DNA of 64,000 nucleotides from Bacteroidales bacterium (GTDB taxonomy: Bacteria; Bacteroidota; Bacteroidia; Bacteroidales; WRLA01). The notes under the pieces were generated by a model. The model was not told where the DNA came from, made no database searches, and worked only from the letters and a program-made list of their open reading frames with translations. The position numbers and the translations under genes were made by a program. The stretch is taken from the NCBI GenBank assembly GCA_009777825.1, contig WRLA01000001.1, forward strand, positions 12,852 to 76,851. Direction: 5' to 3'. Shown here in pieces: positions 30,118 through 32,089 of this stretch; the stretch's first letter is position 1; the number at the start of each line of letters is the position of its first letter.

Positions 30118-30164
30118 AAAAATAGCCCTTAAAATTTAATTCTTAAATTTTAAGGGCTATTTTT
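30118..30164. terminator. bidirectional intrinsic terminator hairpin between dapF and the 16S rRNA
   Basis: A 21-bp perfect stem pairs aaaaatagcccttaaaattta with taaattttaagggctattttt, with a 5-nt loop. A/T runs lie on both sides. Confidence 0.75.
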
Positions 30165-30243
30165 ACATAAAGTATATAAAGAAAAAGAAGCCTAAGAGCG
30201 CTGATGCGTTCCTATTTTTGGTCTCTTGTAACAACATCTCCAG

Positions 30244-31771
30244 AAAGGAGGTATTCCAGCCACACCTTCCGGTACGGCTACCTTGTTACGACTTAGCCCC
30301 AGTCACTAGTTTTACCCTAGGTCACTCCTTGCGGTCGTGAACTTCAGGTACCCCCAGCTTCCATGGCTTGACGGGCGGTGTGTACAAGGCCCGGGAACGT
30401 ATTCACCGCGCCATGGCTGATGCGCGATTACTAGCGAATCCAACTTCACGAAGTCGAGTTGCAGACTTCGATCCGAACTGAGACCGGTTTTCGAGATTCG
30501 CATCTTGTTGCCAAGTAGCTGCCCTCTGTACCGACCATTGTAGCACGTGTGTAGCCCTGGACATAAGGGCCGTGCTGATTTGACGTCATCCCCACCTTCC
30601 TCTCGGCTTGCGCCGGCAGTCCTGCTAGAGTCCCCATCTTTACATGCTGGCAACTAACAGTAGGGGTTGCGCTCGTTATGGAACTTAATCCGACACCTCA
30701 CGGCACGAGCTGACGACAACCATGCAGCACCTCCAACGCCGCCCCGAAGGGAAGTCTGCTTTCACAGACCGTCAGCGCCGGTTCTAGCCCAGGTAAGGTT
30801 CCTCGCGTATCATCGAATTAAACCACATGCTCCTCCGCTTGTGCGGGCCCCCGTCAATTCCTTTGAGTTTCAACCTTGCGATCGTACTCCCCAGGTGGAT
30901 CACTTAATACTTTCGCTTAGCCACCGGCGGTATATTGCCGACAACCAGTGATCATCGTTTACAGCGTGGACTACCAGGGTATCTAATCCTGTTTGATCCC
31001 CACGCTTTCGTGCATCAGCGTCAATAACAGCCTGGCAAGCTGCCTTCGCGATCGGTGTTCTATGTAATATCTACGCATTTCACCGCTACATTACATATTC
31101 CGCCTGCCCCGTCTGTATTCCAGTTTATCAGTATCAACGGCACGGTCTCAGTTGAGCTGAGAGATTTCACCGCTGACTTAATGAACCGCCTACGCACCCT
31201 TTAAACCCAATGAATCCGGATAACGCTCGCATCCTCCGTATTACCGCGGCTGCTGGCACGGAGTTAGCCGATGCTTATTCCTATTATACCGTCAGTCCAT
31301 TATCACGTAATGGTGTTCTTCTAATAGAAAAGCAGTTTACAACCCATAGGGCCGTCATCCTGCACGCGGCATGGCTGGGTCAGACTTTCGTCCATTGCCC
31401 AATATTCCTCACTGCTGCCTCCCGTAGGAGTCTGGTCCGTGTCTCAGTACCAGTGTGGGGGATAACCCTCTCAGGACCCCTACCCATCGCCGACTTGGTG
31501 AGCCGTTACCTCGCCAACTATCTAATGGGACGCATGCCCATCCTTCACCGGATTGCTCCTTTATCCATCAAATCATGCGATTCAATGGAACCATGAGATA
31601 TTAATCTTCCTTTCGAAAGGCTATCTCTCTGTGAAGGGTAGGTTGCATACGTGTTACGCACCCGTGCGCCGGTCGCCACCAGTGTATTGCTACACCGTGC
31701 TGCCCCTCGACTTGCATGTGTTAAGCCTGCCGCAAGCGTTCATCCTGAGCCAGGATCAAACTCTTCATTGT
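30244..31771 (-). rRNA. rrs: 16S ribosomal RNA (Bacteroidales-like)
   Basis: The minus strand reads ACAATGAAGAGTTTGATCCTGGCTCAGGATGAACGC...GTGCCAGCAGCCGCGGTAATACGG...AAGTCGTAACAAGGTAGCCGTACCGGAAGGTGTGGCTGGAATACCTCCTTT. The ends were set by alignment to the E. coli termini from memory. Confidence 0.95.
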
Positions 31772-31987
31772 AAATAATTTTTTTTATGTCTTTGAAGTTG
31801 TTCGAGACCTGACTTCGTCGCTCAAATTTTACTTTGTTTCAAAGTCTATTGATTCGGTTCGCATTCTTTACGTCTGCCTCACGGCAGCGTATTCGTTCTT
31901 AGGCTTTCTTTTTGCTTCATTTCTTGTTTAGAACTTTCGTTTTCCGTCCTTTTTCCTCACTGCTCTCCTACCCGAAAAAACGGACTG

Positions 31988-31995
31988 CAAAGATA
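31988..31995 (-). promoter_or_regulatory. 16S rRNA promoter -7 box (TATCTTTG on minus strand)
   Basis: Minus strand reads ...aaaagtttgttatattgaaaaaagttgtatctttgcagtcc. A TTTG lies about 23 nt upstream of the box. The box is about 215 nt upstream of the mature 5' end. Confidence 0.55.
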
Positions 31996-32030
31996 CAACT
32001 TTTTTCAATATAACAAACTTTTTTGAAAAT

Positions 32031-32089
32031 ATTTTTTTCATCCCATTTAATTAATTGGGTTCCAATTAATTAAATGGGATGAAAAAAAT
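32031..32089. terminator. 28-bp perfect-stem hairpin (insulating terminator upstream of the rRNA promoter)
   Basis: Left arm atttttttcatcccatttaattaattgg, loop gtt, right arm ccaattaattaaatgggatgaaaaaaat. Every position was paired by hand. Confidence 0.7.

Follow-up and report, generated by a model that had tools for sequence, protein, structure and literature searches.

A putative self-contained 16S rRNA transcription unit without spacer tRNA or 23S genes in a Bacteroidales bacterium

We analysed a stretch of 64,000 nucleotides (nt) from a Bacteroidales bacterium (GenBank assembly GCA_009777825.1, contig WRLA01000001.1, positions 12,852 to 76,851; the whole stretch is referred to below as the window), which carries a 16S ribosomal RNA (rRNA) gene with no spacer tRNA and no 23S gene behind it. 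An Rfam search of the 64-kb window found one complete bacterial small-subunit (SSU) rRNA at 30244–31771 on the minus strand (RF00177, 1527.5 bits, model positions 1–1533, not truncated) and no large-subunit (LSU) or 5S rRNA; the stretch without a 23S reaches 30.2 kb downstream of the 16S gene, on the strand of that gene, and 32 kb upstream. The sole tRNA gene that ARAGORN detected in the window was a tRNA-Thr at 21989 on the plus strand, and neither tRNA-Ile nor tRNA-Ala was found there. A permissive Rfam search (E ≤ 5) of positions 29000–33000 found no relic fragments of tRNA-Ile, tRNA-Ala or 23S. A first-pass annotation, made without database searches, had described a stand-alone 16S gene with its 3′ end at 30244, no tRNAs of an internal transcribed spacer (ITS) or 23S downstream, and a convergent dapF gene ending at 30000. 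Rfam and ARAGORN agree with the first statement across the 64 kb, Rfam places the 3′ end at the same nucleotide, and Pfam identifies dapF (E = 3e-43). The features of the unit, in the order in which its RNA would be read, are as follows.

32014–32017, minus strand: -33 element TTTG, lying 18 nt upstream of the -7 element in a putative Bacteroidota-type sigma-A promoter (from the sequence)
31987–31995, minus strand: putative -7 element TATCTTTGC, fitting TAnnTTTGy (from the sequence and the leader comparison)
31923–31934, minus strand: boxA-like leader element GTTCTAAACAAG (leader comparison by eye; the corresponding block is AGTTCTTTGAA in 17 of 20 rrn leaders)
31894–31920, minus strand: leader half of helix A, pairing with 30176–30200
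31856–31864, minus strand: leader half of helix B, pairing with 30204–30212 in the minimum free energy (MFE) fold
31794–31809, minus strand: leader half of helix C, 23–38 nt before the 16S 5′ end, pairing with 30220–30238
30244–31771, minus strand: 16S rRNA gene (RF00177)
30176–30238, minus strand: trailer, probably the former 5′ part of an ITS, with the 3′ halves of helices C, B and A (from the fold)
30106–30164, minus strand: predicted bidirectional intrinsic terminator, a perfect 22-bp stem at 30118–30164 with A5 on its 5′ side and T5 on its 3′ side
29215–30000, plus strand: dapF (diaminopimelate epimerase, Pfam DAP_epimerase), convergent with the 16S gene and forming the downstream boundary of the rRNA unit

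This is not the make-up of a canonical bacterial rrn operon, in which 16S, ITS, tRNA-Ile, tRNA-Ala, 23S and 5S form one unit. Brewer et al. (bioRxiv 10.1101/705046; ISME J 2020) call rRNA genes unlinked when no 23S lies within 1500 bp downstream of the 16S. Within the window the gene would count as unlinked by that rule, as no LSU follows a 16S that is complete and apparently functional.

The sequence upstream of the gene resembles a Bacteroidota rrn promoter and leader. The Bacteroides sigma-A consensus consists of a -33 TTTG and a -7 TAnnTTTGy (PMC12632263), and the putative 16S promoter matches both elements, with a spacing inside the usual ∼18–20 nt. The first-pass annotation had placed a -7 box at 31988–31995; on the minus strand this interval holds the core of the element, TATCTTTG, it has TTTG 18 nt upstream, and it agrees with the consensus. 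The wider context, GTATCTTTGCAGTCC, fits TAnnTTTGCAGyCC, which is found at rrn promoters of related Bacteroidia. Transcription would start at about 31980–31984. We compared by eye the 300 nt upstream of the 16S gene with the corresponding stretch at 20 Bacteroidia loci with canonical operons, and the leaders proved homologous: the window has the TAnnTTTGCAGyCC promoter context in common with them, as well as the block AGTTC....AAGAAATGAAGCAAAAAG..GCCTA. A single promoter is visible in the window leader, whereas tandem pairs are common among its relatives.

Leader and trailer are complementary in a manner that would enclose the 16S alone. When the two were joined and folded, the MFE structure contained three collinear helices with 46 pairs around the 16S. 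The pairing of 31894–31914 with 30181–30200 proposed in the first pass is a part of helix A and withstands shuffling: of 5000 shuffles one reached its local-alignment score of 30, as did 2 of 3085 genomic 79-mers. The energy gained by pairing leader with trailer was -23.1 kcal/mol, against -5.9 ± 3.2 kcal/mol for shuffled trailers; no shuffle out of 400 reached this gain, and 2 of 387 genomic controls did. The local-alignment and energy-gain tests replaced an earlier control that ran RNAduplex on long sequences, which was dropped because it allowed large internal loops and had the leader's own complement among the controls. In linked operons of Bacteroidia the leader pairs with the first 80 nt of the ITS in the same geometry: the leader half begins ∼23 nt before the 16S, the 3′ half begins 2–6 nt after it, and pairing gains -18 to -34 kcal/mol; judged by eye, the helix sequences vary among loci while the pairing is kept. 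In addition, the opening bases of the window trailer, GGAGATGTTGTTAC, are similar to those of the ITS at related loci, GGAGAGATGTTAC and GGAGAGATATTAC. Because of the geometry that it has in common with linked operons, we read the trailer as the 5′ part of an ITS that ends after the 16S-specific stem and is capped by a terminator. The duplex would have the form of an RNase III-type processing stem, in which leader and 3′ flank pair at length around the mature 16S.

The predicted terminator begins 79 nt past the 16S end. Its hairpin, at 30118–30164, has perfect 22-nt arms and a 3-nt loop (-26.1 kcal/mol, z = -7.5); TTTTTCATTTTG comes after it on the 16S strand, and TTTTTACAT on the dapF strand. 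The U-rich tract UUUUUCAUUUUG stands directly after the stem, as would be expected of an intrinsic terminator. The first pass had given a 21-bp stem ∼80 nt past the 16S; hairpin and spacing were right, and the stem is one pair longer, at 22 bp. Compared with the canonical Bacteroidia rrn operon, the window locus has the same promoter context, the same leader blocks and 16S-enclosing helices at the same distances from the mature ends; it differs beyond the 3′ half of the 16S stem, where the window has an intrinsic terminator instead.

We consider it likely, with a probability of about 0.8, that the locus is a genuine self-contained 16S transcription unit, which would correspond to the 5′ part of a Bacteroidia rrn operon ending before tRNA-Ile. 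Transcription would start at the single Bacteroidota-type promoter and pass through a leader of ∼210 nt, with the boxA-like element and the 5′ halves of the three helices, then through the 16S and 68 nt of former ITS with the 3′ halves of the helices, and it would stop at the 22-bp hairpin and U-tract, which would also serve as terminator for the convergent dapF. As in linked operons, the ∼46-bp duplex of leader and trailer would be a likely substrate for RNase III-type release of pre-16S. The 23S, 5S and spacer tRNAs would then have to be encoded in another part of the genome with a promoter of their own. Gene content, the sequence signals, leader homology, the excess of complementarity over chance and the independent assembly of the two flanks are shown by the data; that the promoter is used, the stem cleaved and transcription terminated is what we infer from the sequence.

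Such an arrangement is not new in kind. Unlinked rRNA genes have been described before, and the Rikenellaceae RC9 gut group is one case: 334 of its 624 long reads showed them (Brewer et al., bioRxiv 10.1101/705046; ISME J 2020). The genes of that survey resemble the present one in having no 23S within 1500 bp after the 16S and in belonging to uncultured, host-associated Bacteroidales (RC9); the survey differs in working from distance only, and promoters, stems and terminators are not described in it. To place the window among its relatives, a genome collection was scanned with a 16S 3′-end signature, which returned at least 120 loci, 91 of which were informative in that at least 1500 nt followed the 16S. 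Among the matches listed, a 23S start lay within 1500 nt of the 16S at 71 of these 91 loci and at 2164 nt at one, while at 19 there was no 23S in the next 1.9–7.9 kb, as Rfam confirmed for all 19 (L005, L006, L015, L023, L028, L037, L043, L052, L055, L058, L064, L065, L073, L080, L082, L090, L092, L116 and L120). The locus at 2164 nt belongs to Mucilaginibacter gilvus (L123, NZ_SBIW01000006.1), with no tRNA detected between the two genes; because of the length of its spacer it would count as unlinked under the 1500-bp rule. The window's own genome was not among the matches listed, where the best full-length 16S identity was ∼87%.

The 19 loci come from uncultured Bacteroidales and other Bacteroidota of rumen, horse, deer, termite and other sources, and they take three forms, in which the 16S is followed by tRNA-Ile only, by tRNA-Ile and tRNA-Ala, or stands alone. 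A hairpin with a T-run ends most of those units whose sequence was read. The RC9-like loci retrieved (among them Ca. Onthomorpha L080 and L082, RUG093 L005 and UBA5515 L006) retain tRNA-Ile on the 16S, whereas the window has no tRNA. The same layout as in the window is found at two loci of termite-gut Bacteroidales, L028 (Emb289P1bin74, WQWI01000031.1) and L116 (Nc150P4bin20, WRGQ01000085.1), where the 16S 3′ end is followed by a trailer of ∼55 nt, a hairpin with a G+C core and a T-run, and then protein genes, with no tRNA and no 23S in 7.9 kb. The 16S 3′-end signature GTGTGGCTGGAATACC is common to the window, L028 and L116. The two loci differ from the window in their neighbours, a toxin-antitoxin-like pair at L028 and gyrB at L116, and in a trailer and terminator that are not alignable with those of the window; both contigs begin inside the 16S, so that the comparison covers the 3′ side and not the leaders.

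The metagenome-assembled genome (MAG) Emb289P1bin74 has two 16S 3′ ends (L028 1–250 and L037 1–500) in which the first ∼75 nt of the trailer are nearly identical. L028 runs into a terminator and the toxin-antitoxin-like pair and L037 into tRNA-Ile, tRNA-Ala and a terminator, neither with a 23S. The motif AATAGCCCTT[A/T]A with its complement AAGGGCT occurs both in the window 16S terminator (30118–30164) and in the terminator after tRNA-Ala at L037 (448–490). The common match is too short for us to call the two terminators homologous; it may be chance, or a hint that the window unit was once a 16S-tRNA-tRNA-terminator unit and has lost its tRNAs.

Outside the Bacteroidota, Thermus thermophilus, Helicobacter pylori and Rickettsia transcribe the 16S alone without spacer tRNAs and have 23S-5S elsewhere. 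They belong to distant phyla and use sigma-70-type promoters, and the arrangement in Rickettsia has been attributed to genome degradation. The window differs from Rickettsia in having ordinary gene density and intact rRNA signals.

Unlinked 16S units appear to be recurrent in uncultured gut Bacteroidales: the window and the 19 loci suggest as much for rumen, horse and termite, contrary to the data for the human gut, where Brewer et al. (bioRxiv 10.1101/705046) report no unlinked genes. The statement of the first-pass annotation that unlinked genes for rRNA are not the norm for Bacteroidales is for this reason only partly right, given the RC9 reads and the 19 of 91 loci without 23S among the matches listed. 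Organisms with a stand-alone 16S would be invisible to 16S-ITS-23S long-amplicon profiling, and ITS-based strain typing would fail on them, while assembly and binning would be easier for a single-copy stand-alone 16S than for a full operon. The window opens no new mechanism. It offers a well-annotated example, with promoter, boxA-like element, 16S-only stem and terminator mapped, of a phenomenon mostly catalogued by gene distance, and its split point falls exactly between the 16S stem and the place of tRNA-Ile. We raise one wider idea tentatively, and think it rather unlikely as it stands: that in a clade of higher-termite-gut Bacteroidales the rrn operon has been fully dismantled into separately terminated modules (16S; 16S with spacer tRNAs; 23S elsewhere), with several differently truncated 16S units in one genome, as L028 and L037 suggest, and with the modules at rearrangement-prone sites. 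If this were true, abundant gut symbionts whose genomes are not reduced would coordinate the synthesis of 16S and 23S entirely in trans.

Several observations weigh against a genuine self-contained unit, in its signals, its position and its assembly. The core of the boxA-like element is GTTCTAAAC in the window and GTTCTTTGA in 17 of 20 related leaders, a difference at four positions, although the flanking leader blocks are conserved. We label the GTTCTTTGA element boxA-like from what is known of E. coli boxA, and its role would presumably be in antitermination; canonical relatives conserve this core, and in the window it is changed. For the stem, a test of cognate against non-cognate pairing across 61 loci was weak, with 3–4 of 60 foreign partners pairing equally well, and we do not count it as support.

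As to position, the 16S gene is not conserved beside dapF or trkH in the relatives compared. A congener contig (L124; DapF 88%, ∼87% nucleotide identity) is syntenic with the window until 18 nt past the dapF stop, and no 16S was found in the 578 nt that remain beyond the point of divergence. Contigs of relatives with 88%, 75%, 73% and 68% identical DapF carry no rRNA genes. On the other side, no 16S follows trkH in L171 and L172 (TrkH 78% and 63% identical), which have other genes instead; the contig encoding an 82% identical TrkH stops too early for its trkH downstream region to be compared. Because L124 and L171/L172 diverge from the window beyond dapF and trkH, the 16S unit is bordered by a synteny breakpoint on either side. 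Such breakpoints would be expected after a recent duplication or rearrangement, and they are thus consistent with an orphan extra copy, a unit that is real and supernumerary beside one or more canonical linked operons; most of the organism's rRNA would in that case be supplied in the conventional way. Genomes of this mixed kind, with both linked and unlinked rRNA genes, make up 0.62% of complete genomes (Brewer et al., bioRxiv 10.1101/705046), and the divergent boxA-like core would also suit a spare copy. The 16S, in contrast, is full and intact, with intact promoter and processing stem, and among the loci retrieved, truncated units are the only kind seen in several related Bacteroidales MAGs of gut and termite-gut origin. 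We regard a supernumerary copy as somewhat unlikely, though it deserves to be taken seriously.

The assembly itself bears on a second alternative. With at least two 16S copies in the genome, a trkH-side flank and a dapF-side flank might have been joined falsely through their common 16S, or a binned or scaffolded 16S might have been placed into a gap. We looked for independent contigs by way of those encoding the exact TrkH and DapF proteins in other assemblies, and found the following.

ENA contig k141_3043477, window 19215–30247, 100% identity: dapF, terminator and complete trailer
ENA contig k141_2534914, window 35995–31319, 99.98% identity: trkH, the upstream hairpin, promoter, leader and 452 nt of 16S
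JGI 3300002469 contig JGI24701J34945_10010941, window 35542–31865, 100% identity: trkH through part of the leader

Because the ENA and JGI contigs match them, both flanks of the 16S are independently reproduced, and since k141_3043477 is 100% identical to 19215–30247, an independent assembly joins dapF, the terminator and the whole trailer. Among the ENA and JGI contigs found, none crosses 30248–31318, the central and 3′ part of the 16S, and the breaks of the ENA contigs at 30247 and 31319 would fit an artefact. The end of k141_3043477 (MEGAHIT, L001) at 30247 is only 4 nt into the 16S, and not the ∼k-1 bases at which an assembly graph would be expected to break; strain variation or trimming could account for so early an end, for which de Bruijn graph behaviour gives no explanation. 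A scan of JGI metagenomes with the exact trailer pattern at the junction, GGTCTCTTGTAACAACATCTCC, gave 0 matches and so added no further junction-spanning contig. Multiple 16S copies do occur in this group, as the two 3′ ends of Emb289P1bin74 with their different downstream contexts (L028, L037) demonstrate. A false join would nevertheless have had to bring together a trkH-side leader that is specifically complementary to the dapF-side trailer in three collinear helices, and flanks that point towards one another the right way round, with a spacing of exactly one 16S length. We judge an assembly artefact improbable on these grounds. Even if the join were false, a 16S without a following 23S would exist, because the flank of trailer, terminator and dapF was assembled independently.

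A decaying rRNA pseudogene, left by disruption of an operon and no longer expressed, might be suspected from the divergent boxA-like core and from the one promoter where relatives often have two in tandem, but it is very hard to reconcile with a full-length covariance-model match of 1527.5 bits, a promoter that fits the consensus, processing helices that are kept and a sequence that is identical in independent samples.

The 16S unit is preceded by a second conspicuous structure. The locus has, beyond its promoter, the following features.

32031–32089, no strand assigned: perfect 28-bp palindromic hairpin with a 3-nt loop, 13 nt upstream of the -33 element (fold: -34.8 kcal/mol, z = -11.2)
32276–32717, minus strand: two small overlapping open reading frames (ORFs) of 71 and 77 amino acids, the protein genes nearest to the rRNA unit on its upstream side, following trkA-trkH (gene calls also in contigs L002 and L003)

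The hairpin at 32031–32089 is the longest perfect hairpin of the 64 kb, and the terminator hairpin at 30118–30164 is also among the top two. The first pass had called the upstream one an insulating hairpin of 28 bp; its perfect arms bear out the structure, and the insulating role is unproven, the polarity being wrong for a canonical terminator. On both strands a T7 run lies 5′ and an A7 run 3′ of the stem, and on the 16S strand the stem is followed by A7 and then UAUUUUC, which is not the hairpin and U-rich tract of an intrinsic terminator. Because the T-run is 5′ and the A-run 3′ on both strands, the hairpin is not a canonical terminator. Unproven candidate roles are a barrier, an RNase III target on read-through RNA, and a protein or recombination site; if transcribed by read-through from trkH, it would form a long duplex that RNase III could cut. 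We also considered whether the two flanking hairpins might be the ends of one mobile element and rejected this, their sequences being unlike each other.

The two small ORFs had no Pfam match at E ≤ 0.001. They are laid out like a toxin-antitoxin pair, and the second ORF, which starts MNKFALDTNILIY, is PIN-like by eye. Intergenic stretches rich in CACAAAG/CTTTGTG and CTCTGTG/CACAGAG occur at 2128–2169, 24189–24290 and 32170–32245 of the window and at 4755–4900 of L124; they sometimes adjoin a short C/G hairpin, they recur in the genome and its congener, and one stands at the synteny break with L124 that follows dapF. They may be a dispersed repeat tied to rearrangements.

Contigs identical or related to the window come from JGI samples whose MAGs bear termite-gut codes (such as Emb289P1, Lab288P3 and Nc150P4), from which we infer that the organism lives in the gut of a higher termite. 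Elsewhere in the window, a giant ORF of 5185 amino acids (6003–21560, minus strand) contains SprB repeats and Ig-like, Big_2 and GLUG motifs, and its product is probably a huge cell-surface or gliding-type adhesin. The middle of this ORF, at 8–12 kb, has a G+C content of 0.55–0.57, compared with a window mean of ∼0.47.

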